This document shows positions 7,607 through 35,333 of a stretch of 64,000 bases of DNA, in pieces; within the stretch, counting starts at the first letter, position 1; every line of letters begins with the position of its first letter. Location: NCBI GenBank assembly GCA_036744835.1, contig DAIOHD010000001.1:464414-528413 (forward strand), read 5' to 3'. Made by a program: the position numbers and the translations under genes. A model generated the notes under the pieces. The model was given only the letters and a program-made list of their open reading frames with translations. It made no database searches and was not told the DNA's origin. This DNA is from Candidatus Magasanikiibacteriota bacterium (lineage in GTDB: Bacteria; Patescibacteriota; Patescibacteriia; Magasanikbacterales; GWA2-37-8).

Positions 7607-7619
7607 TTCGGCAAAAACC

Positions 7620-7652
7620 AAACGGCTCACTCGCGTGAGCCGTTTTTTTTAC
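7620..7652 (+). terminator. rho-independent terminator
   Basis: aaacggctcac-tcgc-gtgagccgttt followed by TTTTTTTT; preceded by a second hairpin gccgaa-aaaaaaataa-ttcggc. Confidence 0.75.
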
Positions 7653-7814
7653 CCCGTGAAATAATTTTTGTTCAAACAAAAATTGGCGCAAAGCACCATT
7701 TCACTGGGGTGAACCCCGTGAAATTTCGTCCGCCGTGACAAACAAACCTGCCTTTGGCAGGATTTCACCGGAGTAAATATCTAATATCCCAATATCTTAA
7801 TATCTCTCCGTCTT

Positions 7815-13293: not shown

Positions 13294-13298
13294 AACTT

Positions 13299-14333: not shown

Positions 14334-14334
14334 A

Positions 14335-17194: not shown

Positions 17195-17204
17195 ATCACT
17201 TTAA

Positions 17205-18152: not shown

Positions 18153-19459
18153 TATTTGCCACTTGGTAAAGGTGGTATATCATCCACAAAAACCCATCTT
18201 ATAACTAAATTATCATCTGACATTTCACCACGAATACAGGTTTCAATTTTTTCTTTTTGTTCTTCAAAAGAATTTTTATTTTTTAAAACCACTTTTATTT
18301 CAAGTAAATCTAAACTTTTTTGGATCAGTTGATATTTAAAAAAACAATTTTTATTAAAGGTAATTCCTACAAAAAGAATAAAAAACTCACAAGGAATCAT
18401 TTTGCCACTTTTTGTTTTTAACATATTCATTTCTCTACCTTCAATTTTCTCCAATTTCCCATAATTTGTCGAGAGTGTTGCCATATCACCAATATTATAC
18501 CTGATCAAAGGCATAATAAAATTATTAAGTGTTGTGATATAAACTTTACCAGACTGTTTTGATAAAACGGCTTTTTCATCATGATCTAATACTTCCACAT
18601 AATTGTTCCAAAAATTTATTCTTAATTCTCCACTATCATCGTTTGAACAGGCTATATTTCCCGCTTCCCTCGAACCATATCTATTAAAGACCTTGCAGCC
18701 GAAAACTTCCTCAATGTCTTTTTTAATTTCAAAATACAATGTGCCAGCAGATGTTGTTATACTTCTCGGAAAAAATATCTTTATTTGTCTATTCTTAATA
18801 AATCTCGCTAATTCATGTAGCGGATGGACATACGACTCTACAGAATTTGGTTTAAATTTATTCCATTTTAATACAAAATTGGTCAAAGATGTTTCAGATA
18901 ACTTAAAAGCATTTATCTCCGTACGATTATATATCCAATTTCTAACTCGAATAGAAAATTTCTCTTTTCCCTCCAACAAATCTCTTTCTGAACCCCACAA
19001 ACGTAATTCTTTATCGCCCACATTCTGACCATTATTTTTTTTAATAAAAAGTTTATCGGCCGTATTCCATTCATTATAATACTTATCCTGAAAAAAACTG
19101 ATGGGTTCACCTGTAGATCCTCCGGAAAGGTTTTCGTAAGCCCCTCTTCTTTTAATTCTAGAAATTAAATTCTTTTCCTCTCTTCTAATAATTTGTTTTG
19201 TTAAAATTGGAATTTTATCAAAATTTTCCAAAAATACTTCGTTGTTTTTTACAACACCCGCTTCTTTTAAAACTCTTTCATAATAAGGAACATTTTGGGA
19301 AGCATAAAGCAATAAAACTTTTAATTTGTTTTCTTGATATTGTTTTTGTTGTTCAATAGGGGCTGAGGATATTTTTTTAATTTCTTTAAAATAACGTGGT
19401 ATTTTACTGCCAGTTATGTAAAGTAAAAAATATATTAAAGGTTTTCTCCAATTAAACAT
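18128..19459 (-). CDS. phenylacetate-CoA ligase / CapK-like adenylate-forming enzyme
   Basis: GGSTGEPISF P-loop-like AMP-binding motif. Confidence 0.5.
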   Translation of the reverse strand: MFNWRKPLIYFLLYITGSKIPRYFKEIKKISSAPIEQQKQYQENKLKVLLLYASQNVPYYERVLKEAGVVKNNEVFLENFDKIPILTKQIIRREEKNLISRIKRRGAYENLSGGSTGEPISFFQDKYYNEWNTADKLFIKKNNGQNVGDKELRLWGSERDLLEGKEKFSIRVRNWIYNRTEINAFKLSETSLTNFVLKWNKFKPNSVESYVHPLHELARFIKNRQIKIFFPRSITTSAGTLYFEIKKDIEEVFGCKVFNRYGSREAGNIACSNDDSGELRINFWNNYVEVLDHDEKAVLSKQSGKVYITTLNNFIMPLIRYNIGDMATLSTNYGKLEKIEGREMNMLKTKSGKMIPCEFFILFVGITFNKNCFFKYQLIQKSLDLLEIKVVLKNKNSFEEQKEKIETCIRGEMSDDNLVIRWVFVDDIPPLPSGKYCYSISEI

Positions 19460-19460
19460 A

Positions 19461-20132
19461 CTATTTATTTACCTTAGCAATACAAATTATTGATGGCTGA
19501 AAAATTTTAGGTAAAGTTTTGACAGGATAAAGAAAATGCAAAAATCCTATTTTGCTTTTTTGTCCCAACGTCAATTTTTTCATCTTAATAAAAGAAACAT
19601 CAAACCCTTGATTCTCTAACTTTTTTTTAAGTGTTTTATGTGATTGTGAAGAAACATGAAGATCGTCATTTTTTCTTGAAAAAAAATTAAACAATCTTTC
19701 AACTATTAAATTCGGTGTGGAAAAAATATAAAAACCTTTTGGTTTCAAGATTCTCTTGACTTCATCAAAATGTCTTTCCAACTTTGGTAAATGTTCAATT
19801 AACTCACTACTTACAACAATATTATAAGAATTATCTTGTAAATTAATGTTTTCTGCATCAATTTCATTTAAAACAATCCCGTTGATTTCGCGAGCCAACA
19901 AAATATTTTGTGGATTAAAATCACTACCGTCAATATTAAATCCTTGCTTTGTTAACTCTTTAACTAAAAATCCCCTACCCGAACCAAGTTCTAATATTTT
20001 AATATTACTTTTATCTTGAAAATTTTCTAGATATTCTATCAAAGAATCCTGTTTAGTTCTCCATTTTTGGATTATATCTGAACCAGTGTTTTTTTGAACA
20101 AGATTAGAATATTTTTCCTTAAAATTATTCAT
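19461..20132 (-). CDS. class I SAM-dependent methyltransferase
   Basis: ILELGSGRGFLVKEL. Confidence 0.6.
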   Translation of the reverse strand: MNNFKEKYSNLVQKNTGSDIIQKWRTKQDSLIEYLENFQDKSNIKILELGSGRGFLVKELTKQGFNIDGSDFNPQNILLAREINGIVLNEIDAENINLQDNSYNIVVSSELIEHLPKLERHFDEVKRILKPKGFYIFSTPNLIVERLFNFFSRKNDDLHVSSQSHKTLKKKLENQGFDVSFIKMKKLTLGQKSKIGFLHFLYPVKTLPKIFQPSIICIAKVNK

Positions 20133-21240
20133 AAATTTGTGAATATTTTTTTACCACAAAATTCCAACTCATTTTCTCTGCTTTTTGCCTACTGACTATT
20201 TTCATTTTTTCTAGTAATCCCCTACTATTATAAAATTTCTCTAAAGCATTATAAATTTCTTCCTCGCTATTTTTGTCCACTATTATACCATTTTCTTCGT
20301 TAATGAGCTCTTTAGAACCTCCGACGTCCGTTGTTATTATAGCCAATCCGGATGCCATGGCTTCAAGCACAGAATTGCTCATACCTTCGTTCAAAGAAGG
20401 TAAAACAAACACATCGGCTCGTTGATAAATTTTAGGTAAATTTTTATGTTCAACTGAACCAAAAAACTCTACTTTTTTATCTAATCCGGCAACTTTTATT
20501 TTATTTACAAATTCTTCTTTTAAATCCCCATCACCAACAATAAGTAGCCGACTATTTTTATATTTTCTCTCAAAATCAACAAACGCTTCAATTAAATATT
20601 TAATTCCTTTTCTTTTAATCAAACGCGAAGTGGAAATAATAACAAATTCACCATTGTCTTTTGTAACAGGAAAAAATTGTGCCGTATCTACTCCGTTATA
20701 AATAACAGAAATTTCTTGGTGTGGTGTTATTTTTAAAGCCAGATCTTTAAGTCCTTGAGAATTAGCGATTATGGCCTTAGATCTTTTCCAAATTTCTTTA
20801 CTTAATCGTTTAAAAAATAATTTATCTAACCAATAAAATCTTTTATTATAAAAAGGGACATCCGAACCACGCAAACTAACAATATAAGGAATTTTTAATT
20901 TCATCGCAATGTATCCGCAAGGAATCCCAAAAAAAGCATGTACTAAATCAATTTTTTCTTCTTGCTTCAATTTTTTACAATAAAAATAAGCTTTTATCGA
21001 ATAAACTAGGAGATCTTTGATACTTTGGTAATGGAAATTTCCTTTTTTATTAATATCAAGATAATGAATACAAATATTATCACTAAATTGCTCAATTTTA
21101 AATTTATTAACTGAAGAGGTAACTAAATCAATCTTTAAATCGGGGTATTTCGCAAATTCTTTAAGTAGATAATGGGTAGCATTGCCTGCTCCCCCGCCAA
21201 GAGGCGGAAATTCATAATTTAATACAAGAATTTTTTTCAT
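20125..21240 (-). CDS. GT4 family glycosyltransferase
   Basis: EGMSNSVLEAMASGLAIITTDVGG (E-X7-E region). Confidence 0.7.
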   Translation of the reverse strand: MKKILVLNYEFPPLGGGAGNATHYLLKEFAKYPDLKIDLVTSSVNKFKIEQFSDNICIHYLDINKKGNFHYQSIKDLLVYSIKAYFYCKKLKQEEKIDLVHAFFGIPCGYIAMKLKIPYIVSLRGSDVPFYNKRFYWLDKLFFKRLSKEIWKRSKAIIANSQGLKDLALKITPHQEISVIYNGVDTAQFFPVTKDNGEFVIISTSRLIKRKGIKYLIEAFVDFERKYKNSRLLIVGDGDLKEEFVNKIKVAGLDKKVEFFGSVEHKNLPKIYQRADVFVLPSLNEGMSNSVLEAMASGLAIITTDVGGSKELINEENGIIVDKNSEEEIYNALEKFYNSRGLLEKMKIVSRQKAEKMSWNFVVKKYSQIYE

Positions 21241-21244
21241 GTTT

Positions 21245-22099
21245 TTATTTCTTTAATAAAACATTTGTTATCCCACATTCTACATTTTTTCCAAAAAACA
21301 TTGGATTTATTTTAACTTGTTCTATAGAAAAATTTTCTATCTCGCTGTTTATTAAAGACAAACCATTGTCTGCAAATACTTTTATGTAATCGTCATAACG
21401 CCAACGATTGGTGTAGGACACTCCTTCTTTGGTTAAATATTTATTCCAGGCATAATCTGAATATTTATAAAACAAAAAAGGAGAATTAAAATTATAATGA
21501 TCACGTAAATCAATGTGATGATACATATAACCACCCGATACCAAAATTTCTGCCAATTTTTTTATATTTTCCGTTATATTTTTTATGTGCTCAAAAACAC
21601 TGATGGAATAAATAAAATCAACACTGGTTTTGATATCGCTTTCCACAAGGTCTTTACTGATAAAAGTAATATACTCACTCTTAATATTATTACTTTTGTC
21701 TAGAAAAAATAAACTATCAATTTTGTATTTATTTTTTATATAATCAATCTCTTCTAAAAAATACTTCAGTTGTTTTTTTGTTTTTATTTGTCTAGGAAAT
21801 TTATCGATCAAAATGACTTTTTTTGATCCTTTTAATAAAAAATTATAAGCATTAATGTATGAATTACCTGGTCCCAATTCAAGAATTACCTTATCTTTCA
21901 AATTAATATTATTTTTTAAAATACATTCATACATCTTTTCAAATCTCCTGTCTAACTCAATAAAATTACTAGAATATAACTTCCAAAATAAAAATTTATT
22001 AAATATTTTACTAACAAACCCTAATTTACAATAACTAAATCGTATCGAAGCATCAAACTTGTCAAAAACAAAACTAGCAAACCTATTTTTAATTTGCAT
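21245..22099 (-). CDS. putative methyltransferase
   Basis: ILELGPGNSYINA motif I-like. Confidence 0.4.
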   Translation of the reverse strand: MQIKNRFASFVFDKFDASIRFSYCKLGFVSKIFNKFLFWKLYSSNFIELDRRFEKMYECILKNNINLKDKVILELGPGNSYINAYNFLLKGSKKVILIDKFPRQIKTKKQLKYFLEEIDYIKNKYKIDSLFFLDKSNNIKSEYITFISKDLVESDIKTSVDFIYSISVFEHIKNITENIKKLAEILVSGGYMYHHIDLRDHYNFNSPFLFYKYSDYAWNKYLTKEGVSYTNRWRYDDYIKVFADNGLSLINSEIENFSIEQVKINPMFFGKNVECGITNVLLKK

Positions 22100-23051
22100 A
22101 TTTATCTGTTTTGATTACTTCCCTAACATAATATCTTTTTTCCGTAGTTGAAGAATTAAACCTGATTTTCATAAGTAAACCGATAATTATACCAAAACTA
22201 AAAAACATTATTCCGGATAATAAAAAGAAAAATGTAACCAACGTCCAACCGTTTCTATTTAAACTCAAACCAAAAACCAATTTACCGTGGAGTGTCCAAA
22301 AACCGGAAAGACCGCCCAATAAAAATGAAATAAAACTTAAATAACCAAATAGATGAAGAGGTCTTTGTGAATATTTATTTAAAAACCAAATATAAATAAG
22401 ATCTATAAACCCTCTAATAGCTTTGGTACACCCATATTTACTTTCTCCTTTTACTCTCTGTCTATCATTTACAACCATTTCACCGATAGAAAAACCTTTC
22501 CAACGTAGCAAGGCGAGAATATAACGATGCATCTCCCCTTCAATATCTAGAGATTTTACCGCTTCTTTTTTATAAACCCGCAAAGAACAACCAGTATCGT
22601 GAACAATATCGCTGATAAATAATCTTCGCAGGCTTCTGCCGATTACAGTCAATATTCTAATACTCGCTTTATCTTGACGGTTTTTTCTCCAACCAGCAAC
22701 AACGTCCAGATTTTCTTCTTGTAGCTTCTTTAAAAGCACTGGAATGTCACTGGGATCATTTTGCCCGTCTCCATCCAGTGAAACCACCAAATCCCCTGTA
22801 CAGGCCTTAAAACCCGCATCAAAGGCCGTGGTTTGACCGTAATTGCGGTTAAAATTAATAATAGTAACGTTGGATAAGGACTTTAATTCGGAAAGTGAGT
22901 TATCTGTGCTTCCGTCGTTTATATAAATAATTTCAAAATTATCGGTTAATTTAGTAACCACTTCTTTGATTTCCCCGTCTAATTTTATAATATTCCCCTC
23001 TTCATTATAAATCGGAACGACCACAGATAAAGAGTTGATTTTGTTTTCCAT
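22089..23051 (-). CDS. GT2 polyprenyl-phosphate sugar transferase (GtrB/Ppm1/ArnC-like)
   Basis: VVVPIYNEE, YINDGSTDNS and DGDGQNDP motifs plus a C-terminal two-TM anchor. Confidence 0.7.
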   Translation of the reverse strand: MENKINSLSVVVPIYNEEGNIIKLDGEIKEVVTKLTDNFEIIYINDGSTDNSLSELKSLSNVTIINFNRNYGQTTAFDAGFKACTGDLVVSLDGDGQNDPSDIPVLLKKLQEENLDVVAGWRKNRQDKASIRILTVIGRSLRRLFISDIVHDTGCSLRVYKKEAVKSLDIEGEMHRYILALLRWKGFSIGEMVVNDRQRVKGESKYGCTKAIRGFIDLIYIWFLNKYSQRPLHLFGYLSFISFLLGGLSGFWTLHGKLVFGLSLNRNGWTLVTFFFLLSGIMFFSFGIIIGLLMKIRFNSSTTEKRYYVREVIKTDKYAN

Positions 23052-23199: not shown

Positions 23200-23862
23200 T
23201 TATTTCTTCTTTTTCCCTAGTGCTTTTTTCGTAGCCACTTTTTTTACTGCCTTAACTTCCTTTTTAACCTCTACAACTTTTTTTGGAGCAGCGATTTCTT
23301 TTTTAACTTCAGGTTTTATAGTTTTTTCTACAGGAGCGTTTGGAGCTAAGATTTTCATCAAACGATCGAGTTTGACGTGTAAACCTTTGACTTCAGCCAT
23401 GAGCTCTCCGGAATCTTTACTACCACCTTTTTTATCAAAACAGTTATCACAGAAAACATCTTTGCCTTGCATTGGTTTGAAAGGCACTTGGCATTTCTCA
23501 CCACATTTAGCGCAAACTGCATCGTGCATTCCACCTCTGTCTTCAAAGCGAGGTCTCTCTCGTCTTTCTCCTCTATCGCCACCTCCGAAAGAACCACGAC
23601 TTGGTCTATCAGAACCTCCGCCTTGTTTTTCAAAACAAGAACTGCAGAAAACAGGTCTGCTACCAGTCGGTCTAAAAGGAATTTCACAATCCTTACCACA
23701 TTCACTGCAAGTAGCCTGGTGCATTTGAGGACGACCTCCGTCCCTACCACCAAAACCACCTCGACCACCGCTAAATCCACCTCTGTTACCACCACCGAAG
23801 GATCTTCCTCCTCCGCCGAATGATCTACCACCCGGTCTTTTTGCTCGATTAAAATCTCCCAT
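23200..23862 (-). CDS. RGG-box protein with two CxxC-x17-CxxC zinc ribbons and a Lys-rich tail
   Basis: GGRSFGGGGRSFGGGNRGGFSGGRGGFGGRDGG; CSECGKDCEIPFRPTGSRPVFCSSC and CAKCGEKCQVPFKPMQGKDVFCDNC; C-terminal KKEVKAVKKVATKKALGKKKK. GC-rich, so three shadow ORFs overlap it. Confidence 0.55.
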   Translation of the reverse strand: MGDFNRAKRPGGRSFGGGGRSFGGGNRGGFSGGRGGFGGRDGGRPQMHQATCSECGKDCEIPFRPTGSRPVFCSSCFEKQGGGSDRPSRGSFGGGDRGERRERPRFEDRGGMHDAVCAKCGEKCQVPFKPMQGKDVFCDNCFDKKGGSKDSGELMAEVKGLHVKLDRLMKILAPNAPVEKTIKPEVKKEIAAPKKVVEVKKEVKAVKKVATKKALGKKKK

Positions 23863-24574: not shown

Positions 24575-24700
24575 TAAACTCCACCCCACCCCTCCTCTTG
24601 AATAAGAGGAGGGAGGTTTCCCTCTCTTCTATTAAGAGAGGGATTAAGGGAGAGTCAAAAAGACCCGCTTCGTCAGCGAGTCTTTTTTTGTATTGAGATT
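24575..24700. terminator. bidirectional terminator region: twin CCUCCUCUU/AAGAGGAGG hairpins plus a U-flanked hairpin between greA and the giant gene
   Basis: cctcctctt-gaat-aagaggagg; ccctctctt-ctatt-aagagaggg; aaaagaccCGCttcgtcaGCGagtcttttttt (short CGC/GCG stem, weak). Confidence 0.55.
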
Positions 24701-27700
24701 TAGAATCCTATCCTGGAAGTATACGCCAGTATTTTGGAAATTATAGTTTCTCCAAGAGCAAACCCGGACATGATAGTTGACGGTAAAGTTCGCACATAAG
24801 AGGTTTTGATATTGTTTTCCAACATCCCCAAAGCGGTTATTTCGCGCAAAGTTTTATCTTCATCTACAAAATAATTTCTTCCGCCGATTTTAGCAAGCAT
24901 CCCCGGATAAACCGTAGCTTGAGTGATGCTTTCGGAACTCTTCACATAATATGGCCATTCGGACAAGCCGATAGTTTTGGCTTTGAATTTATCACCAAAA
25001 ATAGTTTTGGCTGCAGATAGAGTGATTGGGTATAGAGTACTGTTCAAACCAACCACATACAATTTATCCGAACTTAGATATTTTACTACTTCCGAACCAG
25101 GACGATAAAACACATGATAAGGAGCTTCCATTGGTTGACTCAAACTATCAAAACAACTTTGCGTAATAGATTTATAATATTTGGAATAATTATCATCCGC
25201 ATTCCAAGATTTGAAAACATCACCATCGGAGAAATATCGATAATTCATGTTATTGTCAAGCACATAGATAGCCGGTTTGCCCTCAACTTTGATCATATCT
25301 CCAGGAGCCAAAATACTACAAGTATCTCCGACTGCAAAGGTTGATGTACTGACAGCATCCGGACTATAAGTAATACTGGAAAGATAAGTGTTGGTCATAC
25401 CACCATTGGAGGATCGGAACATCGCGTAAATAGTTTTTCTACCATTATTTGAAGAAAGGGTAAAACTTTTGGTAATAGCGTATTTTTCCCAAGTCGTATC
25501 AATAAAACTGGATTTTTCTGAAACTACCATTTCTGTAGCATTGGCAACATTGAAACTTACACTCACCGCTCGTTCCTTGGTGATAAGTGCGCCACCATTA
25601 ATCACTACCGGATTTCTACCAACTGTCGGGATAGTTAAAACAGGAGCCACGACAACAATCGGTGTACTACCGCCGCCACCACCGCCTCCGCCGCCACCAC
25701 CAACATAAGTTTGAGTGTAAGCGATGTAATCAGTAAAGTGCTTGGTCCAAATTACCAAATCAGAACCAACATTTATCCTACAATCACCTCCGGCAGATAG
25801 AGCATCTCCAACTACCTGAGTATCAGCGCTACAAGTAGCAGTAATTTTAGTGAAAGTTGTTCCGCGATAATAACCGGCAAGATATCCTGATTTACCAGGC
25901 ATCAAAATCCTGACTGCTTTATCAAAATTCAAAGCTGTGTCACCAAAGCCAAGAGATATTACCGTATTTACAGTTGCGCTATAACCGGAATCAGGAGTTA
26001 CCGATACAGAGCTGGTAGCTTCGATAATTGGTAAAGAGATAGTACCGTTCCAGGTGCTTGTTGGAGTTGTGACAGTCATACCAGCTGGGAAAGTTACTTG
26101 AACAATACCGATAGTTGTTGAAACATTAACAGTGATCGAACCGGGAATGGCACCAACTGTAGATGTGGTAGAAGTAGCACTAGTTGCCGAAATATCTAAA
26201 TATATTGTAGTTGTAATACTGTCTGATACAGTGACTGTGGAAGTTGCTGTACTGTTATCACCGATTAAAATAATTGGTGTAGTCGTATTACCCTGAGTAG
26301 AGGTTGTTAGATTTTGCTCATCCGAACCAACTGATAAAACCCAGACTGTTCTGGTGGTAGAAGCGGTGTTGGAAGAACCATCGGTTGCAGAATAAACAAC
26401 ATAATATGTTCCCGTGACGTTAGTATTGACTGGGTTAGTAACATCAACTGTTGTAGTACCGTAAACAGCATCATAAGCGGTAGCGCCAAAATCTGTATAA
26501 ACCGTACCTACATAAATCTTCATATCCTCGCCTATTTTGGTAATAACCGGAGGAGTTGTGTCTGGACCAACTTTACCGGCTTCAAAGGTATCAATAGCAT
26601 TTTGTAAAGTGATCACTTCAGCATCTACTGTGGCTTGTGAAGAAGTGTTAGTTACTCCTTGAGCATGAACAATTGCTGTATTCAATGTTGTTTTGGAACC
26701 AACAGCATATTGACCGGGCAAAGTTCCTTCTACAGCACTACCATAAATAATGGTCGCAGTAGCGATTTTTGCATCAAGAGATGAAGTGTTGGACAACGGT
26801 ACTTTACTGGCTTCAAAAATATCAATAGCTCCTTGCAAAGTAGTTACTTCAGCATCTACCGTAGATTGTGAAGAAGTATTGGTAACTCCTTGAGCGTGGA
26901 CAATAGCTATATTGAAAGTAGTTTTGGACCCCGCAATATAATTTATCAATGGAATATCACCTTCAACCGCTGCATCATAAGTACTGGTAGCTACGGCAAT
27001 TTTAGTATCAAGTGCGGACACATCAGATAGTCCTACTTTGCTGGCTTCAAAATTATCTATGGCGTCTTGTAAATCAATAACCGCTTGGTCAATGGTTGCT
27101 TGAGAAGAGGTATTGGTATAACTTTGCGCGGTTTCAATTTCCGGTAAAAATATTGCTTTGGATCCTGAAACATAATGTACAATCGGGATATCACCTTCAA
27201 CCGCTGTATCATAAGTGCTGGTAGCTATAGCGATTTTAGCATCAAGTGCGGACATATCAGATAACGGGATTACACTATCTATGAAATCACTTTCTGCTTG
27301 TTGTAAATTTAAAACTGCTCCATCAACTTCCGATTGTAAAGAAGTACTGGTATAACCCTCTGCTATTTGAATCGCTGATAAAAATGTATTTTTTGAACTG
27401 GTAGTATATTGTCCTGGTAAGGTTCCGGTTACCGCCACATTGTACATAGCGGTGGCAGTAGCAATTTCAGCATTTAATTCTGTCATATCCGCATAAGGAG
27501 CGATGTTCACAATGTATACTTTTTGTGTTCCATTTTCCGCAGTCACAGTATAATTTACCGAATTGGTAAAATTTTGAGATACATCGCTTTCCGGATTTAT
27601 TGTCGCCAAAGAGCTTTCCAATTCTATGCTTGGAGTCAAAGAAGTAACAACTGTACCGGTCGAAACACGTATATCAATAGTGGAGGTAATTCCTTCATTT

Positions 27701-30700
27701 ATTGTCCCATAGATAGTACCCTCTGTCGGTAAATAAATAGAAAAATTCTTGATATTATTATTGGAACTAGAAACTACGGTTAATGTGGCAATAGAAGGAT
27801 CGGAAACGTTGTCATATTGATCAATGAGATAAAGATAATAAATACCGGTACCAAACGGAACATCCACAAGAGTACTTGTCCCAAATTCATCATCAGAAAC
27901 ACGCATATAGTCACCTTTTGCAAACTGATCCGCAGAAGTTAATTCCGTTGAAGTGGCGAACCAAATATGACTATTTGGCAAACCAGAAGGGTTGATGACA
28001 ATTTGTACTGTATCTCCTGTTTTTTCACTAGTAGTATCTAATGGGAATACAGTATCTTGATTATATGGCCTAACAAAAAGTATAGCATCAGAAGGTTCGG
28101 AAACTCCGGTTTCATTATTTATAACATAAAGACGATAAGCACCAGAAATATCTGGAGCTTCTATAGTAGTAGAAGTTCCAACCGCCATAGTCATAGTCGC
28201 ACTTACTGCAAATGAAGAAGTAGTATAACTGACAGAATATGGAGCAAACCAAATAAAGTTTTCCGAAGCGGTAGAGGTGGTCAAAGGGATTATAGAATAC
28301 CATTCAACAGTACTTGAAACAGTAAAAAGTTCGTTTTGATCAGTAGGGGCCGGAGAATTAATAACGTTGATTTCCCTAAGATTTGCATCTGCACAATTGC
28401 CCGCTGTATCGCAAACCTGATAAACAATATAAAAAGTACCGGTGTTATTTGTATTAACGAAATTTATATATCCCTCAGGTAACTTTGCTGACCTAACTAT
28501 GTCAGATGATACATCTCCGTCAATATCATCTATAGCCGTAGCGCCAGCATCAACATAATTACTATTTTGATAAACAGTGGTAGTAGCTTCTCCAATCAAA
28601 GAAATTACCGGAGGGGTGTTGTCTACTGTTAGGGAAGCTATAGAATGAGTGGAAACATTGCCCACTATATCTACAATATAAATATAATAAATTCCTTCGT
28701 CACTTGGAACATTCATCCCTGTATAAGTACCGTCATAGGCCTTAGTCATAGTCGCACATTCATAAAATTGTTCCTGAGTAGTTAATCCGTCCGGAGCAAA
28801 CCAAACATTATTATCGGCATTACCAGAAGAGTTTATCTCGACCCAATTACCGCCAGAGATAATTTTTGACACTGGAAATACTACATCTTGAATTTCAGCG
28901 GTAAATACCGATACGGTATATTCTTTGGTAGTAACTTCGTCTTCAGCAGTTACCGTATAAATTTGCGGATTAGTAAAATCTTTTGGCAAACCGTCATTTT
29001 CCGGATATATAGTTGTTGATAAATATTTGCTTAGTTGTATTTCAGGTGTTAATGAACCTCTATCCGTTCCTAACGGCAAGTAACAATTGATATTAGCATC
29101 GGAAATATTACATTTATAATATGTGCTTGAAACAGTAAAACCAAAATTATCAATATTGGTACTATTGCTTGATAATATTGTCCAAGTAGCCAAAGATTGA
29201 TCGGAAACATTATTGTTTTTATCAATAATGTAAAGGTGATAGGTGCCGGTGGCTATAGGCGCCCAAGCTTGTCCCCCCATACCATCATCACCTTGATAAA
29301 AATTTCTCATATTTAAGGACTCTTCAAACTGCACACTAGAGGTTAGGCCAGCTGGAGCAAACCAGACATTGCTATATGGTAATCCTACAGGATTGATATT
29401 TATTAAAATATCCCCACCTGTTCGTATCGTGGAAGTTGAATTCGGAAAAACTTCATCTTGATTATCTGGTCCAAGCACAGTTAAAATCGCATTTGATGGA
29501 TCGGAAACATTACCATATAATATATCATCAACGACATACAAACGATAATTACCAGCTTTATTTGGAGCCTTAATCACATAATCTTCTTTCCAGCCACCTT
29601 TGGTCATATAATCATCTTCCACAAATTGTTCAACAGAAGTCATACCTTCCGGCGCAAACCACGCATTACCAACCCATCCTTCTATAGGGATAGTTATAGC
29701 AACATTTTCTCCAGGCAAACTACTGGTAGAAACTGGTAAAAATTCATTCTGTTTTAGTGTTTTTGTGACAGTAACCGAAGCATCCGATGGTCCAAAAATA
29801 TCGCCGACATTATTTATAACATAAACAAAATATTCTCCAACTCGTCCGGGAGCATCCATACCGGTATTTTGCCCGTTATCAGTTTTAGTGGTTGTCACAC
29901 CATTCAAATCAAACTGTTCTGTGGAGGTTAAACCGGCTGGAGCTAACCAAACTTGATTATCAAAATTACCGGAAGAATTAATATTAATCCAGCGATTTTC
30001 CGGATAAACAGTTTTGAAAGCCGGTAAAACTAAATTTTCAATATCTTCTTCAATTTCCACAGTCACTATATATTGTTTTATATCTCCACTTTCCGCTGTA
30101 ACTGTATAAACTACTGGATTAGTGAAATCTTGTTCAACCCCCTCTTCCGGACTAACTGTAGAATTAGTTCCTTTGGGGAAACTAATACTGGGAGACAAGT
30201 GTGTAACATCAATCTCTGGATCGTTTGGAATATAAACTTTGATGGTCGGACTCGGAGTAGCGGTTTCATCAATAACCCCCAAAATATCTCCGGTAAAATA
30301 AGAAGTTGAAAAATAAAAGTAAAAATTCCGAATACTATTATTCGCACTTGGTAAAATAGTCAAAGTAGATGTAGAAGCTTCGGAAACATTTCCGTATTCA
30401 TCAATCACATAAAAATAATATGTTCCTGTGGCAATGTTAAAATTAAAATTTATTTGATCTCCCATCGGACCAAGCATCCCCAAAGAAGTGGTAGGGCCAT
30501 CTTGGATAAAATCCGAAGAAGACACCATTCCCGCTGGTGCAAACCAAAACTGCATTTTCTCGTTTACGCTTGGATCAGATACTAAAACTAAATTTACATA
30601 ATTATAAGTGCTGGTAGATTCGGTAAATATTAAATTTTGATTTGTCGGGCCGGTGACGGTCAAAGTAGCATCAGAAGGATCGGAAAGCGCCACAGCTCCT

Positions 30701-33700
30701 GGGCCCTCACCTTCTCCACCTTCAGTTGCCAATAATACAAAGAATTTATATTCCCCGGCTAAAAACGGCACAGTGGTGGTAGTTGAAGAAGCAGTATAAG
30801 GAAAAACTGCCGAAACCCTGTCAGCTGAAGTTTCTCCTTCACCTATATCGGGAAAACCTTTAAATAAAGCTTCCAAATCATCTTTGTATTCTTCCGGGGC
30901 AAAAAATCCGCCCACCATAATATATTCATCATAAATCGCTAGATTTGGTGCAAAAGACACTACTCCACCAACAGCTTGAACTATGGTAGACGAAGAAAAA
31001 AGAGCATTATTTTCCGGTTTAACTCCAAGCAAAGCTAACGAAGGGGCTGAAACTATACCTTCTTCGCTAATCACATACAAACGATAAAAACCAGGTTGAG
31101 TAGGTGCAATAATCTCAATTGCATCCCCTACCGCCATGGTCATAGTAGCGCTTTGTACAAATTCTTCTACACTTGTAAACAAGGTAGTGGACGGAGCAAA
31201 CCAAATCTCATTATTAACATCTCCCGAAGAATTTATTGACACATTAGATCCACCGTTTACAGTTGTGTAATCTGGAAAAACTTGATCTTGAAGTAACGGA
31301 CGATCTATAACATTCACTTCTCTCCAAAATACACCACTCCAATTACCAGCCTCATCCCAAGTTTCATATCCTATACTGTAAGTTCCGGTGACACTGGAAT
31401 CTATATAATCTCCGCCTCTAGCGACTTCAACATCTATAGTAGTGCTGACTCCATCAATCAAATCCCAAACAATAGTGCCAGCATCTACTTCTATCCCTGT
31501 ATTAGTCAAACTTTCACCTTGGTAAATATAAGCCGGGTTATCACCTAAAATTTCTATAGTTGGTGGGGTTGCATCAACTGTCAAAGTCGCATTTGAAGGA
31601 TCACTAACAAAGCAGGTGGCATGATCATTGTTACAATCTATATCTGGAAATTCCGGACTGGGAGTTAAAACATAAAGCTTATAATGACCCTCAAGCGAAG
31701 GAGCATATAGAAAGGAAAAAGATCCATTTTCCGCCTTAGTCATTGTTGAACCGTCTATATAAAATTCGGTAGGGTCAGTTAAACCAGCAGGGGCAAACCA
31801 AACAGAATTGGAAACATTTAATGAAGGATTGATAGATACATAGCCACTGGAACCGACTCTTACTGGTCCTGGAAAAACAAAATTTTGCACTCCAGCCTCA
31901 AAAACAATTACCGTATATTCTCTTTGGTCGCCATTTTCTGCGGTAACAGTATAAACAACGGGATTAAAAAAATCCTGCAACACATCACTTTCCGGTTCAA
32001 CTGTAGCAAAATCGGAAATTTTAAATGTCGGTGTTACTGAACTGAGATCAGAGCCAGTTGGAACATAAACATTTATATTTGTTCCGCTGGTTATCCCAAA
32101 ATAATTAACATTATCAATAGAAAGAGAAAAACTATCAATATAATTACTCGCACTTGGTAAAACCGTCAAAATTGCATCAGATGGTGAAGAAACATTTTCA
32201 TACGGATCTATAACATAAAGATGGTATGTTCCAGTAGTAATGGGCGCTCTCAATTGGGTAGATAATCCACTTTGTGCCTGTGTCATTGTTTCTCCGGCAA
32301 CAAAATCCAAAATTGTCGCCATACCCGGAGGGGCAAACCAAACTTGGTTTAATTCATTTCCGGAAGAATTAATTGAAATAGAAGGCATTTTACTTGTTTC
32401 TTTGGTCACACTGGTAGAAGCGGTAAACACATCATTTTGCAAATTCAATCCGGTCACAGTCAAAATAGCAGTAGAAGAATTTGATAAAACATAAGCTTCC
32501 GGGCCTGATTCTCCCATAATAAAAGCAGCGATATAGATATTATAATCTTGTGCAGAATAAGGCGCTTGCATCTGATAAGTTTCAGAATTATATGAGAAAG
32601 GAGGCAGTGAATCAAAAGAAACCGTATTACTAACCATCTGTCCAGAATTAAAATCCGGTAAATTTCCCATTATATAAGCAAAAGGATTGTCTGTGTTTAT
32701 AGGTACCAAAATAGCCAAAAATGTTACCCCGTTTATTATTTCACTGGAATTTCCATTTATAGGAAACATTTCTCCAGAAGCGGAGCTAGTAGACGAAGGC
32801 AGGGTTATGTTTTGATTGTAAGGTTTAACACTCAATATTGCTTTTGAAGGATCTGATACCATCCCTGTATCTTCATTTACTAAATAAACTCGGTAAAAAC
32901 CGGCGGTGCTCGGAGAAGAAATAGAAGTTGCAGTACCTGAAGCTACGGTCATGGTAGCACTAACAACGAATTGTTCGGCTTGTGTAAATTCTAAAGTTGC
33001 CGGAGCAAACCAAATAGTGTTGGTAGCTGCAGTTGAAGTCACACTGACTGATGAAGAATGATCCACTTCCAAAGATATTGAAAAAACTTCATCTTGGTCA
33101 TTTGGTTTAGGAATGCTCGGACCAAAACCGGCCATGCTGGTAAAAACTCCAAAACCATTGGTATAAGAAAGATAAAGATTTCCGGTGTTACTTACAACAT
33201 TCAATACACCGTCATAATCTGTCATCGGTGAACTGACAGGATTTATAATATCAAACACAACAGGAGTAACAGAATTGTCAAATATACCGGAACTGGCAGA
33301 TGTCTCGGTTAAGGTAATATTTTCTATATCGCTTCCCGTGCCCCCATCTGTAGTGGTAATTGTAACATAAATCGTTTCAATAGTACTTGAAATAAAATTT
33401 GCAGTTGGATCAGTGATAGAAATAATAACAGAATCCGTATCGGTATTATAAGGTGCACTGTCAAAACCGCCAGAAGCTTCTTTGATAATTTTACCCGGCA
33501 TAGCTCCTGTAGAAAAAACCCTACCATTATTAATATAATCTCCTAAAACAACTAGATCGTAATCAAAAAAATCAAAATCTCCGTTATTAGTAAAATTGGT
33601 CGTGGTTATATTTCCTGCTAATATATGATTTCCTTCATTGCTAATAGTAAGACTATAGAAATTGACATTTCCTGATCCGCCCAAAGTTCTACTAGCAGGA

Positions 33701-34179
33701 GTAAAACTCGTGCTTAAAAAAACATTTGCAACACCACCGGTAGAATCAAAAGTTCCTCCATTAACAATAAAGTCTGAATATCCGATCGTTGAAAGTTGAC
33801 CACCGAGTAAATTTACTATACCAGAATCAATATCGACAGCGCTATCAACGGTAATATTACCGGAATTTAAAGTAACAGTACCGGAATAGCCGCTTTTCAA
33901 TCTTAAATATGAAAGGTTTAAATCTCCGGAATTGTTGGCGCTGGTATTGGTAGTTCCGTAAAAAGTAAAATTTATAGGTGAACCCCAAGGAAAAGTTAAA
34001 GGATCTCCGCAAGATCCATGCCAATTATCATAATTTTGCATGTTATATGGATCTGTACTGGACGCAGAATACCATACACATTCAGCAGCTGCGTTTACTT
34101 GCACTGGCCCGCTTAATAAAAACCAAACCCCGGCTAGTAAAATAAAGACGGCCGAGATCTTCGAAAAAGATTTTATCAT
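24700..34179 (-). CDS. giant (about 3159 aa) secreted modular surface protein / adhesin-like
   Basis: Likely start MIKSFSKISAVFILLAGVWFLLSGPVQVNA-AAE, a signal peptide. Eight or more repeats of a beta module pair (W/VWFAPAGLTS..EQF...TMTKA..G.Y.LYVID..GNVS.PS.A.LTV and QDFTNPVVYTVTAE.G....Y.V.V). Three DUF5011-like Ig domains (DTTPPVI...TGTYY..Y...D..GN). Four FIVAR-like repeats. A Gly11 linker and a unique C-terminal domain. Confidence 0.8.
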   Translation of the reverse strand: MIKSFSKISAVFILLAGVWFLLSGPVQVNAAAECVWYSASSTDPYNMQNYDNWHGSCGDPLTFPWGSPINFTFYGTTNTSANNSGDLNLSYLRLKSGYSGTVTLNSGNITVDSAVDIDSGIVNLLGGQLSTIGYSDFIVNGGTFDSTGGVANVFLSTSFTPASRTLGGSGNVNFYSLTISNEGNHILAGNITTTNFTNNGDFDFFDYDLVVLGDYINNGRVFSTGAMPGKIIKEASGGFDSAPYNTDTDSVIISITDPTANFISSTIETIYVTITTTDGGTGSDIENITLTETSASSGIFDNSVTPVVFDIINPVSSPMTDYDGVLNVVSNTGNLYLSYTNGFGVFTSMAGFGPSIPKPNDQDEVFSISLEVDHSSSVSVTSTAATNTIWFAPATLEFTQAEQFVVSATMTVASGTATSISSPSTAGFYRVYLVNEDTGMVSDPSKAILSVKPYNQNITLPSSTSSASGEMFPINGNSSEIINGVTFLAILVPINTDNPFAYIMGNLPDFNSGQMVSNTVSFDSLPPFSYNSETYQMQAPYSAQDYNIYIAAFIMGESGPEAYVLSNSSTAILTVTGLNLQNDVFTASTSVTKETSKMPSISINSSGNELNQVWFAPPGMATILDFVAGETMTQAQSGLSTQLRAPITTGTYHLYVIDPYENVSSPSDAILTVLPSASNYIDSFSLSIDNVNYFGITSGTNINVYVPTGSDLSSVTPTFKISDFATVEPESDVLQDFFNPVVYTVTAENGDQREYTVIVFEAGVQNFVFPGPVRVGSSGYVSINPSLNVSNSVWFAPAGLTDPTEFYIDGSTMTKAENGSFSFLYAPSLEGHYKLYVLTPSPEFPDIDCNNDHATCFVSDPSNATLTVDATPPTIEILGDNPAYIYQGESLTNTGIEVDAGTIVWDLIDGVSTTIDVEVARGGDYIDSSVTGTYSIGYETWDEAGNWSGVFWREVNVIDRPLLQDQVFPDYTTVNGGSNVSINSSGDVNNEIWFAPSTTLFTSVEEFVQSATMTMAVGDAIEIIAPTQPGFYRLYVISEEGIVSAPSLALLGVKPENNALFSSSTIVQAVGGVVSFAPNLAIYDEYIMVGGFFAPEEYKDDLEALFKGFPDIGEGETSADRVSAVFPYTASSTTTTVPFLAGEYKFFVLLATEGGEGEGPGAVALSDPSDATLTVTGPTNQNLIFTESTSTYNYVNLVLVSDPSVNEKMQFWFAPAGMVSSSDFIQDGPTTSLGMLGPMGDQINFNFNIATGTYYFYVIDEYGNVSEASTSTLTILPSANNSIRNFYFYFSTSYFTGDILGVIDETATPSPTIKVYIPNDPEIDVTHLSPSISFPKGTNSTVSPEEGVEQDFTNPVVYTVTAESGDIKQYIVTVEIEEDIENLVLPAFKTVYPENRWININSSGNFDNQVWLAPAGLTSTEQFDLNGVTTTKTDNGQNTGMDAPGRVGEYFVYVINNVGDIFGPSDASVTVTKTLKQNEFLPVSTSSLPGENVAITIPIEGWVGNAWFAPEGMTSVEQFVEDDYMTKGGWKEDYVIKAPNKAGNYRLYVVDDILYGNVSDPSNAILTVLGPDNQDEVFPNSTSTIRTGGDILININPVGLPYSNVWFAPAGLTSSVQFEESLNMRNFYQGDDGMGGQAWAPIATGTYHLYIIDKNNNVSDQSLATWTILSSNSTNIDNFGFTVSSTYYKCNISDANINCYLPLGTDRGSLTPEIQLSKYLSTTIYPENDGLPKDFTNPQIYTVTAEDEVTTKEYTVSVFTAEIQDVVFPVSKIISGGNWVEINSSGNADNNVWFAPDGLTTQEQFYECATMTKAYDGTYTGMNVPSDEGIYYIYIVDIVGNVSTHSIASLTVDNTPPVISLIGEATTTVYQNSNYVDAGATAIDDIDGDVSSDIVRSAKLPEGYINFVNTNNTGTFYIVYQVCDTAGNCADANLREINVINSPAPTDQNELFTVSSTVEWYSIIPLTTSTASENFIWFAPYSVSYTTSSFAVSATMTMAVGTSTTIEAPDISGAYRLYVINNETGVSEPSDAILFVRPYNQDTVFPLDTTSEKTGDTVQIVINPSGLPNSHIWFATSTELTSADQFAKGDYMRVSDDEFGTSTLVDVPFGTGIYYLYLIDQYDNVSDPSIATLTVVSSSNNNIKNFSIYLPTEGTIYGTINEGITSTIDIRVSTGTVVTSLTPSIELESSLATINPESDVSQNFTNSVNYTVTAENGTQKVYIVNIAPYADMTELNAEIATATAMYNVAVTGTLPGQYTTSSKNTFLSAIQIAEGYTSTSLQSEVDGAVLNLQQAESDFIDSVIPLSDMSALDAKIAIATSTYDTAVEGDIPIVHYVSGSKAIFLPEIETAQSYTNTSSQATIDQAVIDLQDAIDNFEASKVGLSDVSALDTKIAVATSTYDAAVEGDIPLINYIAGSKTTFNIAIVHAQGVTNTSSQSTVDAEVTTLQGAIDIFEASKVPLSNTSSLDAKIATATIIYGSAVEGTLPGQYAVGSKTTLNTAIVHAQGVTNTSSQATVDAEVITLQNAIDTFEAGKVGPDTTPPVITKIGEDMKIYVGTVYTDFGATAYDAVYGTTTVDVTNPVNTNVTGTYYVVYSATDGSSNTASTTRTVWVLSVGSDEQNLTTSTQGNTTTPIILIGDNSTATSTVTVSDSITTTIYLDISATSATSTTSTVGAIPGSITVNVSTTIGIVQVTFPAGMTVTTPTSTWNGTISLPIIEATSSVSVTPDSGYSATVNTVISLGFGDTALNFDKAVRILMPGKSGYLAGYYRGTTFTKITATCSADTQVVGDALSAGGDCRINVGSDLVIWTKHFTDYIAYTQTYVGGGGGGGGGGGSTPIVVVAPVLTIPTVGRNPVVINGGALITKERAVSVSFNVANATEMVVSEKSSFIDTTWEKYAITKSFTLSSNNGRKTIYAMFRSSNGGMTNTYLSSITYSPDAVSTSTFAVGDTCSILAPGDMIKVEGKPAIYVLDNNMNYRYFSDGDVFKSWNADDNYSKYYKSITQSCFDSLSQPMEAPYHVFYRPGSEVVKYLSSDKLYVVGLNSTLYPITLSAAKTIFGDKFKAKTIGLSEWPYYVKSSESITQATVYPGMLAKIGGRNYFVDEDKTLREITALGMLENNIKTSYVRTLPSTIMSGFALGETIISKILAYTSRIGF
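26570..27500 (-). repeat. four tandem about 235-bp DNA repeats encoding FIVAR-like units inside the giant gene
   Basis: Near-identical blocks seen directly, for example ttcaaaggtatcaatagc... at 26581 and ttcaaaaatatcaatagc... at 26821. Confidence 0.6.
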
Positions 34180-34295
34180 ATATAAAAATAGATAATTATT
34201 GAAATTTTTAAATAATATCTCTACTGCAAAGTATATCATATTTTGAATTTATGGTCTAATCTTTTTTTACTCTAAAATAGGCCAAAACTGTGGAT

Positions 34296-34327
34296 AAAAA
34301 ATCCTCACTTTTCAGTGAGGATTTTTG
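34296..34327 (-). terminator. rho-independent terminator
   Basis: aaaaaatcctcact-tttc-agtgaggatttttg. Confidence 0.7.
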
Positions 34328-34337
34328 TTTCTTTTAA

Positions 34338-35333
34338 TTACTGAGTTACGACTGTTGGACACGGAGCAAATTCACAATTTGGTCCTGTACGACCTACCGA
34401 ACTTCCATCCGGACAAATTTTAGCTTCTTGAGTACAAATCATAGGTTTTGCCGAATTATTTATTTTATTTTCTCTATTAACTTCTCTGATTTCTTTGACT
34501 TCCTGTCTTATTTCACTTTTAACTTCTTTTTTTTCTTCTATCAAAGATTTAATTTCATTTTTACGTTCTTCTCTAACCTGTTCTCTTTCTTGGCGAGCAT
34601 TTTTCAATTCTTCAATCGCAGTTGCATCACCAGCTTGGGCTTTTTCTAAAAGAGATTTCTTCTCTTCTAGAAAAATCTTTACTTCTTGCAAATGAGTTTC
34701 GATTTTACTTTTTACTTCTTCCAAATGCGCTTTGGTGGTAGTAGAAATATTTTCATTACCAATGGCATTTATCAATCGTTGGCTATTTTCCAAACCTCTC
34801 AAACGCATTTCTTCCAATCTTTGCATACTTTCCGGAGATAATTTTTCTTCCAAATGATTGATAACTTCTTGGCGCTTTTCTGATTGTTCAGCGGCTTTTT
34901 GTAAAACTTTTTGCGCACGTTCTGTTTGTTTTTCGGCAATTTTATCTTTACGATCAGTAATTTGTTGTATAAACTTTTCCGCCTTTTCCATCATCTGATG
35001 AGCTCTTTGTTGTAATTCTGGTTTATCCCCCGCTTTGTCGGCGAAAGATTGAGCCATTTCCATTCTACGTTCTGCAAATTCGGTCAATTTTTCTGCTTTA
35101 GCAACTGGATCAAGTGTAGTCAAAAGAGTAATTTGTTCTTTAATACTTTGCCACATCAGTTTCCAATTACTGATAATTTCCGCAGTTGTGGTAGTAACAA
35201 CCGCTGGAATGGTTTCCATAGCCGTCACTACCGGAGTGTCTGTGGTGGTAGTTTCAACTTGTGCCAAAACCGGACTGATGAACAAAAAACAGGCAAAAAG
35301 AGCTAATCCAAACAATATTTTGTTTTTAATCAT
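34338..35333 (-). CDS. secreted coiled-coil protein with C-terminal Cys-rich knot
   Basis: Signal peptide, Thr-rich stretch, long coiled coil, C-terminal CTQEAKICPDG...CEFAPCP. Confidence 0.45.
   Translation of the reverse strand: MIKNKILFGLALFACFLFISPVLAQVETTTTDTPVVTAMETIPAVVTTTTAEIISNWKLMWQSIKEQITLLTTLDPVAKAEKLTEFAERRMEMAQSFADKAGDKPELQQRAHQMMEKAEKFIQQITDRKDKIAEKQTERAQKVLQKAAEQSEKRQEVINHLEEKLSPESMQRLEEMRLRGLENSQRLINAIGNENISTTTKAHLEEVKSKIETHLQEVKIFLEEKKSLLEKAQAGDATAIEELKNARQEREQVREERKNEIKSLIEEKKEVKSEIRQEVKEIREVNRENKINNSAKPMICTQEAKICPDGSSVGRTGPNCEFAPCPTVVTQ

Follow-up and report, generated by a model that had tools for sequence, protein, structure and literature searches.

How members of the CPR/Patescibacteria display proteins at their surface and take a grip on partner cells is poorly understood, and outside the Saccharibacteria almost nothing has been tested. 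The window analyzed here, a 64-kb stretch of a genome assigned to this group, carries a giant gene whose product had been described, in a preliminary reading of the sequence, as a modular surface protein and a candidate for host-cell attachment. The locus raises the question of what such a protein is built from, how it might be held at the cell and what it could do there. Our analysis supported the view that a secreted protein composed of Ig-like and FIVAR modules has an adhesin-like architecture, and attachment to host cells is plausible.

Integrity of the gene

The gene was defined from the list of open reading frames and its translation (Table 1). It belongs to a single unbroken minus-strand ORF spanning 24700..34239, in which an alternative ATG at 34239 yields 3179 aa counted from that first ATG and the start at 34179 yields 3159 aa; identical proteins in public collections have both lengths (P0008, 3159 aa, on a 906-kb contig; P0159, 3179 aa). 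An open frame of 9.5 kb at ~34% GC cannot have arisen by chance. Given that the protein is repetitive and its source metagenomic, we considered collapse or expansion of repeats, or a chimeric ORF, but the probability of such an artefact is negligible, because two further public assemblies (L001 and L002, from SPAdes/ENA and Logan) match the window at 100% identity over the full length of the gene, the longest exact repeat within the gene DNA is 19 bp, below any read length, and orthologous C-terminal fragments from other metagenomes have the same architecture. The gene as first delimited is thus real, and the assembly collapse or expansion that had been named as a hazard is excluded.

Table 1. 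Features of the giant gene and its flanks, in window coordinates.
Feature	Position	Strand	Protein coordinates and remarks
Giant gene	24700..34179	(-)	3159 codons + stop
Terminator-like hairpin of upstream gene, with T-run	34297..34326	(-)	13-bp stem; ahead of the giant gene's promoter region
Signal peptide	34087..34179	(-)	aa 1-31; MIKSFSK, hydrophobic core, VNA/AAE
Orphan "head"	33109..34086	(-)	aa 32-357
Stalk core	27496..33108	(-)	aa 358-2228
D1, DUF5018-type Ig-like	31900..32139	(-)	aa 681-760
Ig1, PF16403 (Bact_surface_Ig-like, formerly DUF5011)	31303..31560	(-)	aa 874-959
D2, DUF5018-type Ig-like	30052-30333	(-)	
D3, DUF5018-type Ig-like	28903-29154	(-)	
Ig2, PF16403	28351-28611	(-)	
D4, DUF5018-type Ig-like	27496-27753	(-)	
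Four FIVAR units	26560..27495	(-)	block aa 2229-2540; units of 76-78 aa at aa 2231-2540 (26560-27489)
Ig3, PF16403	26320-26559	(-)	
Thr/Ser-rich spacer and PRE beta domain	25702..26319	(-)	PRE aa 2621-2826; Cys2783/Cys2800
Gly11 linker	25669..25701	(-)	aa 2827-2837; mixed GGT/GGC/GGA codons
POST domain	25339..25668	(-)	aa 2838-2947
CT domain	24703..25338	(-)	aa 2948-3159 (212 aa); candidate wall-binding anchor
Short GC hairpin	24609..24624	both	between convergent giant gene and greA

Export and a search for familiar anchors

The signal peptide proposed earlier is present. Judged from hydropathy and the -3/-1 rule, it is a textbook Sec-type signal, the sole strongly hydrophobic 19-mer of the protein being aa 8-26 (Kyte-Doolittle 2.16), followed by V-x-A at -3/-1 when the sequence is read from the start at 34179. 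The protein is ~334 kDa, acidic (pI 4.05) and rich in Thr/Ser.

As had been observed, there is no LPXTG-like anchor. No such motif lies near the C-terminus, LPxxx-like strings are internal only (aa 674, 1276, 1600 and 2460), and a Kyte-Doolittle scan of the protein found no C-terminal transmembrane or hydrophobic segment; sortase anchoring was rejected for want of both motif and segment. Pfam found no SLH domain (PF00395) in the protein, and the same tool finds SLH in a Paenibacillus homologue that bears W modules (see below); anchoring through SLH domains was rejected for this reason. No lipobox was found in the protein, Pfam detected no RTX, lytic or peptidase domains, and no catalytic domain or recognized carbohydrate-binding module was found across the 3159 aa. 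An RTX adhesin of the SiiE, LapA or MpIBP type, secreted through a type I system, was rejected in view of the N-terminal Sec signal, the lack of an RTX match, and neighboring genes (DUF5667-like, DUF5671, P-type ATPase and GreA) that include none for type I secretion.

Repeat plan of the stalk

The preliminary description had proposed eight or more alternating ~190-aa pairs of two beta modules, each with its own motif. Both motifs are true consensus sequences, but the second, QDFTNPVVYTVTAE, occurs in just four modules rather than eight (D, PF16410 DUF5018-type), and a regular alternation was not recovered. What can be counted as eight pairs of ~190-220 aa is in each case a "WFAP" module (W) with a varying partner (D in four, a degenerate and longer W, termed W', in two, and Ig in two), and three W modules stand in direct tandem. 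The order along the stalk core is W1 W' W2 D1 W3 Ig1 / W4 W' W5 D2 / W6 W7 W8 D3 W9 Ig2 / W10 W11 D4, and the real unit is a super-repeat of ~600 aa, W-W(')-W-D-W-Ig, which BLASTP detects between aa 358-878 and 960-1481 (36% identity, E 4e-72) and between aa 387-959 and 1408-1941 (37% identity, E 5e-80).

With a self-HMM of 94 positions, 11 clean W modules were found (E 1e-33 to 1e-41; starts at aa 358, 579, 761, 960, 1177, 1377, 1473, 1571, 1760, 1944 and 2038), together with partial matches to the two W' (aa 459-578 and 1060-1176), which are 30% identical to each other (E 1e-5). Beta-sandwich modules number ~22 in all: 13 W or W', four DUF5018-type, three PF16403, and the PRE and POST domains discussed below. 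Paralogous modules are 25-51% identical at the protein level. An AF2 model of W2-D1 is all-beta, with a pLDDT of 95, and W, in which seven strands are modeled, is confidently predicted to be a beta-sandwich for which Pfam has no model of its own. Segment-wise scans of Pfam, NCBIfam, PHROGs and PDB sequences gave no assignment for W or W', and the PDB-sequence matches of the scanned segments were only artefacts of scFv poly-Gly linkers. W-rich homologues pass the BiPBP_C, Big_13 and bMG6 cut-offs only by summing weak repeats, no single stretch being significant, and a lone W module falls far below them.

In an exhaustive search of representatives the W profile matched 502 clusters (E<=1e-3), and because its carriers include Paenibacillus SLH proteins, Omnitrophota and Riflebacteria, the module is, on sequence grounds, not CPR-specific. 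The W alignment retrieved nothing from a word-indexed database of 5.8 billion proteins, a result that we attribute to a limit of the index since the exhaustive profile search had found clusters. W is thus a well-defined, foldable stalk module that is widespread yet absent from Pfam. W-D was rejected as a conserved supermodule, the Riflebacteria protein P0012 being the sole W-bearing homologue that also has D, and no other ORF of the window contains any of these modules.

The D modules are not full-length DUF5018 domains, as only an Ig-like sub-domain of ~80 aa out of the 352-position profile is present; their nearest counterparts are Ig-like domains at the N-termini of surface glycoside hydrolases and surface glycan-binding proteins (SGBPs) of Bacteroides. 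The three DUF5011-like Ig domains of the preliminary description were confirmed, PF16403 scoring 75.1 bits over three stretches against a gathering threshold of 27, with three copies also found by self-HMM.

The FIVAR block and the stability of the repeats

The four FIVAR repeats, counted by eye as units of ~78 aa, also held up. Over the whole protein PF07554 scored 28.7 bits, slightly under its gathering threshold of 29.2, and it reached 40.4 bits with three significant stretches when aa 2225-2545 were searched alone; a self-HMM made from the four units found no others elsewhere in the protein. That they bind sugar, as had been proposed, is not established, and the FIVAR-containing repeats of Embp are reported to bind fibronectin (PMC7587433, PMC9302970).

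At the DNA level the four tandem repeats, given as 235 bp, are present at a spacing of 231-234 bp, but their identity is just 55-70% (reaching 84% in shorter sub-stretches), and Tandem Repeats Finder reported no arrays at either the default or a relaxed score. The expectation that repeat number is unstable is thus unsupported, because exact repeats reach no more than 19 bp, the FIVAR units are so far diverged and the protein modules are likewise dissimilar. To judge from their sequences, the DNA repeats are old and too diverged for easy recombination. Between strains only the length of the poly-Gly tract differs, a comparison drawn from C-terminal orthologous fragments. Assignment to the length-variable "Periscope" proteins was rejected, as near-identical DNA repeats are lacking and the three assemblies are identical.

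The orphan head and the C-terminal cassette

The head consists of a Cys34/Cys57 pair, periodic strands of G-x-hydrophobic pattern and a T/D-rich beta region. It had no match in Pfam, NCBIfam, PHROGs or PDB sequences and no homologue in the word-indexed database of 5.8 billion proteins. By analogy with LPXTG adhesins, it might be a ligand-binding tip.

At the other end, the preliminary description had overlooked a candidate anchor, the conserved cassette of PRE, poly-Gly, POST and CT. PRE had no Pfam or PDB match and POST none in Pfam, and the segment-wise library scans assigned neither of them. The PRE HMM matches four proteins (L015, L016, L017 and P0151), in each directly ahead of the same C-terminal cassette, and the POST HMM matches L015-L017 and P0154. 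The Gly11 linker was confirmed; its position is conserved and its length variable, from 7 to 13 (G13 in L015, G4-D-G8 in L016, G11 in L017 and G7 in L021), and poly-Gly is also present in P0003 and P0004. In the L016 orthologue, identity rises from 42% for PRE, the fastest-evolving part, to 84% for POST and 91% for CT, the best conserved.

CT comprises three PG-x-x-h-K...Y-h-h units (beta-beta-beta-alpha) with a Cys2954/Cys3009 pair and the invariant motifs DGDVFKSW and GLSEWP; by hhalign profile comparison the internal three-fold repeat is marginal (best E 5e-4). Segment-wise scans of Pfam, NCBIfam, PHROGs and PDB sequences left it without assignment. Its relatives are few and mostly in Patescibacteria MAGs, which, with the DUF5671 and DUF5667-like neighbors, bears out the CPR/Patescibacteria setting; a DUF5671 protein of at least 90% identity is assigned to Candidatus Magasanikbacteria. 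All CT proteins of full length carry a signal peptide, two MAGs encode two CT proteins per genome, and CT occurs at either terminus with unrelated passengers (FN3, Big_7, W and unknown domains), in several homologues straight after the signal peptide with the variable passenger distal. Two fold-search methods placed the EccB repeats nearest, and also listed endolysin wall-binding domains and PlyCB, all with weak scores; no sequence similarity to EccB or PlyCB was detectable. The EccB1 repeats have been likened to wall-binding PlyCB (PMC4769845), PlyCB-like binding by EccB itself being unproven. CT also differs from EccB, PlyCB and the enterococcal endolysin wall-binding domains in global arrangement: EccB has four units and a central domain, whereas CT has three units, lacks a transmembrane helix and does not stand in a type VII secretion context.

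Proposed role

We favor, with modest confidence, a wall-tethered adhesion fiber of ~100 nm with an orphan N-terminal head, exported through Sec in a Magasanikbacteria-like member of the Patescibacteria. The protein would leave the cell by way of its cleavable-looking signal peptide; CT, with its three putatively EccB/PlyCB-like units, would bind the cell's own wall non-covalently, in place of the SLH domains or LPXTG used elsewhere; the poly-Gly tract would act as a flexible hinge; and the tandem Ig-like and FIVAR modules would make up a stalk about 100 nm long, presenting the head, and perhaps the FIVAR block, to a ligand on another cell, a polymer or a surface. CT is read as an anchor because it is extracytoplasmic, terminal, joined to varied passengers and the best-conserved part, and a wall anchor is further suggested by the presence of W modules in Paenibacillus surface proteins that are anchored through SLH domains. 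Our more specific proposal, that CT and the PRE/poly-Gly/POST segment make up an undescribed non-covalent envelope anchor with EccB/PlyCB-like repeats, confined to a small subset of Patescibacteria and a CPR counterpart of SLH, CWB2 and LysM, is tentative. This terminal domain, which recurs together with a poly-Gly hinge in a small set of secreted proteins, is a candidate wall anchor or targeting signal of CPR-specific type.

Carbohydrate-active surface proteins often carry PF16403 and FIVAR. This, the kinship of the D modules with Ig-like domains of Bacteroides glycoside hydrolases and SGBPs, the W modules of SLH-bearing envelope proteins and an adjoining glycosylation gene island would all suit a structural or nutritional envelope component (a spacer, a sheath or a glycan-capturing scaffold like the Bacteroides SGBPs) rather than a host adhesin. 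We consider this unlikely: catalytic and recognized carbohydrate-binding modules are lacking throughout, the Bacteroides counterparts of these Ig-like domains are spacers and not binding sites, and a close relative does without the gene, which speaks against a core role in the envelope.

Like phage endolysin wall-binding domains, CT could instead be the business end, recognizing the wall of another bacterium, host or prey, with the protein held by an uncleaved signal anchor or by protein-protein contacts; it would then be the host-recognition module of an episymbiont. This appears somewhat less probable still, as the V-x-A site of the signal peptide looks well suited to cleavage, CT stays constant while passengers differ, and placement of CT after the signal peptide with a variable passenger distal suits a shared anchor better than a shared warhead. 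A released matrix or biofilm protein, with CT as a folding or oligomerization domain, would agree with the lack of LPXTG, SLH, transmembrane segment and lipobox, wall binding by CT being a deduction; we regard it as improbable, since the occurrence of CT at either end of numerous secreted proteins, alongside a conserved hinge cassette, is the typical pattern of an anchoring module.

These findings leave current views standing, and giant modular adhesin-like proteins are an ordinary class; the most unusual part of this one is the undescribed C-terminal domain, which may tie it to the cell wall.

The type IV pilus is the organelle by which cultivated CPR have been shown to attach (PMC9894109, PMC12206443), an observation that counts against an adhesion fiber.

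Comparison with known surface proteins

Staphylococcal Ebh and Embp are likewise very large Sec-exported surface fibers with tandem FIVAR and an adhesive role (PMC7587433, PMC9302970), the role proposed here. In contrast to them, FIVAR is a minor element of the present protein (four units that score marginally in Pfam), beta-sandwich makes up most of the stalk, and there are no GA modules, DUF1542 or C-terminal membrane anchor. Unlike the Gram-positive Ig-repeat stalks of SraP, Bap, SasG/Aap and the Mobiluncus giant adhesin, it has no LPXTG sortase signal, no known ligand-binding head was found in it, and its repeats are diverged rather than near-identical. In Paenibacillus SLH surface proteins (e.g. 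WP_167859721.1) the same ~95-aa "WFAP...TMTKA...YKLYVID..GNVS" module stands in 10 tandem copies, but these proteins are anchored through three SLH domains at the C-terminus and lack D, FIVAR and CT. With the Ig-like domains of Bacteroides surface lipoproteins (BT_2081, 3hbz; the DUF4960 SGBP of the levan utilisome, 8aa2; DUF5018) it shares the ~80-aa sub-domain only, and it has neither a lipoprotein signal nor a SusC/D context. The giant proteins known from Omnitrophota and from other predators or episymbionts among the bacteria are likewise large, secreted and multi-domain, with a proposed part in cell-cell adhesion (bioRxiv 10.1101/2023.11.21.568195), and the Omnitrophota protein MFA5092326.1 has seven W modules; at 3.2 k aa the present protein is far smaller, and it has no detected lytic or peptidase domains.

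Genomic setting

A hairpin resembling an intrinsic terminator parts the giant gene from the gene upstream. A promoter scan returned no more sites than in shuffled sequence, and we claim no promoter. In a relative with ~80% nucleotide identity, the giant gene and the upstream gene for a secreted coiled-coil protein are absent from the syntenic site. The giant gene is accessory, not core, and its presence or absence in close relatives is the pattern expected for partner or niche specificity.

Gene and module architecture

A single open frame of 3179 aa (ORF list and translation) runs on the minus strand from 34239 to 24700, and its ATG at 34179 gives the 3159-aa product of the preliminary description with a canonical Sec signal (MIKSFSK, then AVFILLAGVWFLL, then SGPVQVNA/AAE), which is its only strongly hydrophobic segment. 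The gene is real and bears an export signal. The mature protein is ~334 kDa, with a pI of 4.05, 22% Ser + Thr and its Cys residues in intradomain pairs; the GC content of the gene is 37-39.5% vs 33-35% in the flanks.

A Pfam search assigned the three DUF5011-like Ig domains noticed earlier to PF16403 (formerly DUF5011; 75 bits, three stretches), and found PF16410 DUF5018 in four stretches (79 bits, profile positions ~131-211 of 352 only). FIVAR scored 28.7 bits in the whole protein and 40.4 bits when its segment was scanned alone, in agreement with the original call. With a self-built HMM we located 11 clean copies of the 'WFAP' module, W (E 1e-33 to 1e-41), and two longer, degenerate versions, W', homologous to one another (30% identity, E 1e-5), while the DUF5018-type Ig-like module, D, bearing QDFTNPVVYTVTAE, is present in exactly four copies. 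The order is signal peptide, head, W W' W D W Ig; W W' W D, W W W D W Ig, W W D; FIVAR x4, Ig, a Thr/Ser-rich spacer with PRE, Gly11, POST and CT, the last 212 aa.

In colinear self-alignments residues 358-878 match 960-1481 (36% identity, E 4e-72) and residues 387-959 match 1408-1941 (37%, E 5e-80), which shows that the real period of the stalk is a super-repeat of ~600 aa. The eight ~190-aa pairs previously proposed are therefore each a W with a partner, but the partner varies (D in four cases, W' and Ig in two each). Likewise, the supposed tandem 235-bp DNA repeats encoding FIVAR are indeed four units, spaced 231-234 bp apart, but they are just 55-70% identical and Tandem Repeats Finder detected no repeats. 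Given that W paralogues share 25-51% identity, both sets are ancient duplications, and the predicted instability of repeat number is not supported.

AlphaFold2, given an alignment of 55 sequences, modelled W2-D1 with very high confidence (pLDDT 95, pTM 0.80) as two beta-sandwich domains. Among 1.84 billion representatives, an exhaustive search found 502 W-containing clusters at E <= 1e-3 (70 at E <= 1e-30), including a 10-copy SLH-domain protein of Paenibacillus cymbidii, a 7-copy Omnitrophota protein, a Riflebacteria protein of plan D-D-Wx6 and a protein from an Alphaproteobacteria MAG. W is therefore a widespread, unnamed stalk module and no CPR speciality; its adjacency to D is not conserved in the other W proteins. 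A 557-aa JGI protein with four W modules (P0018) is labelled 'phage terminase large subunit-like protein', a label probably due to an annotation error or to a short contig carrying a fusion. The head had no match in Pfam, NCBIfam, PHROG, PDB sequences or a word-indexed search of 5.8 billion proteins.

The C-terminal cassette

A search of 5.8 billion proteins gave just seven homologues of CT. Species-representative genomes (185 k) contained six loci, and JGI metagenomes 10. Most of the genomes with a name are Patescibacteria MAGs; one locus comes from a MAG labelled uncultured Gammaproteobacteria, and two MAGs have two CT proteins apiece. The alignment has 53 invariant columns, including DGDVFKSW and GLSEWP. 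All full-length CT proteins carry a signal peptide, and CT either follows its cleavage site directly or forms the very C-terminal end, with mutually unrelated passengers (FN3, Big_7, W or unknown domains).

Two further metagenomes yielded C-terminal fragments of orthologues (L015, L016), in which Ig, PRE, poly-Gly, POST and CT follow one another in the same order. Compared with the window protein, CT is 91% identical, POST 84%, the Thr/Ser spacer 77.5%, Ig3 69% and PRE 42% (L016); the low value for PRE may point to an exposed domain under diversifying selection or relaxed constraint. The glycine tract is G11 in the window, G13 in L015 and G4-D-G8 in L016. Tracts of 7-13 residues also recur just upstream of POST/CT in different secreted Patescibacteria proteins (P0003, P0004, L017 with G11 and L021 with G7). 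Such a pattern, in which a terminal module stays constant and highly conserved, is joined by a flexible hinge and has changing passengers, is the hallmark of a domain for anchoring or targeting.

Features of the giant gene and its surroundings
Feature	Window position	Strand	Residues or remarks
Cold-shock protein gene	6617-6995 region, CDS 6671-6871	-	66 aa
GC-richer patch	7209-7691	both	overlapping ORFs
Cys-rich ORF	7328-7606	+	92 aa
PG_binding_1 protein	10578-11639	-	353 aa; C-terminal domain, 60 bits
Glycosylation island	~11800-23050		14-22 kb part low GC, 25-28%
Zinc-finger gene	23200-23862	-	220 aa; two treble-clef zinc fingers, PF23477, 108 bits
Short hairpin	24609-24624		between giant gene and convergent greA
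Giant gene	24700-34179	-	3159 aa
Head			aa 32-357
W starts (11)			aa 358, 579, 761, 960, 1177, 1377, 1473, 1571, 1760, 1944, 2038
W' (2)			aa 459-578, 1060-1176
PRE	25702-26079		aa 2701-2826
13-bp hairpin + T-run	34297-34326		end of upstream gene
DUF5667-like gene	34338-35333	-	331 aa; secreted; 23 bits vs threshold 27

Interpretation

The best explanation, which we hold with slightly better than even confidence, is a wall-tethered adhesion fibre of ~100 nm, a length estimated by allowing ~4 nm for each of ~22 beta-sandwich modules and adding the four FIVAR bundles. The module folds, the conservation of the cassette and the accessory status of the gene (below) hold, while binding to the wall, the orientation and the ligand are inferred: CT would hold the protein to the cell wall non-covalently, poly-Gly would act as a hinge and the orphan head would form the distal tip. 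It is unlikely that the protein is instead an envelope or glycan-capture scaffold, and somewhat less likely still that CT is directed to the wall of the host. Pfam and sequence inspection found no LPXTG (as noted before), SLH domain or C-terminal transmembrane segment; that the protein is a released matrix component is nonetheless improbable. An assembly artefact can be dismissed: the identical protein sequence is already public, as an unnamed protein, on a 906-kb contig, the gene also lies in 62-kb SPAdes and 23-kb Logan contigs that are both exact substrings of the window, and its longest exact repeat is 19 bp, so that the repeat collapse feared earlier is excluded for practical purposes.

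Host attachment is a hypothesis; the attachment device demonstrated in cultivated CPR is the type IV pilus (PMC9894109, PMC12206443). Giant modular adhesin-like surface proteins are a familiar class, and the part that most merits follow-up is the CT cassette, a candidate anchor specific to Patescibacteria, followed by the unnamed W family.

Genomic neighbourhood

One flank carries the DUF5667-like gene, DUF5671, a P-type ATPase and a C39 peptidase; another DUF5671 protein, sharing at least 90% identity with this one, carries the annotation Candidatus Magasanikbacteria (Patescibacteria, Parcubacteria group). Besides its signal peptide, the secreted, coiled-coil DUF5667-like protein contains a segment rich in Thr and a long helical region rich in Lys and Glu, and its C-terminal part bears the Cys-rich motif CTQEAKICPDG...CEFAPCP. 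The flanking genes are syntenic in a relative (L009) at 78-81% nucleotide identity, but the site (10937-11036, equivalent to ~24.6-35.4 kb of the window) lacks both the giant and the DUF5667-like genes, and the giant gene is therefore accessory. The zinc-finger gene adjoins greA in both, in rearranged order.

The envelope glycosylation island on the other flank encodes two PMT_2-type (protein O-mannosyltransferase-like) membrane proteins, GT1/GT4 and GT2 glycosyltransferases, three methyltransferases and an LPG_synthase_TM protein, and could, speculatively, glycosylate Ser/Thr-rich surface proteins, the giant protein included. The PG_binding_1 domain shows that classical peptidoglycan-binding modules are also in use in this genome. 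The cold-shock mRNA resembles the Rfam cspA thermoregulator below threshold (41.5 bits vs gathering 78, E 7e-9). The GC-richer patch matched no Rfam family at threshold; its Cys-rich ORF encodes CKNCECGGNCGDDCKCKK...CCCPPP.
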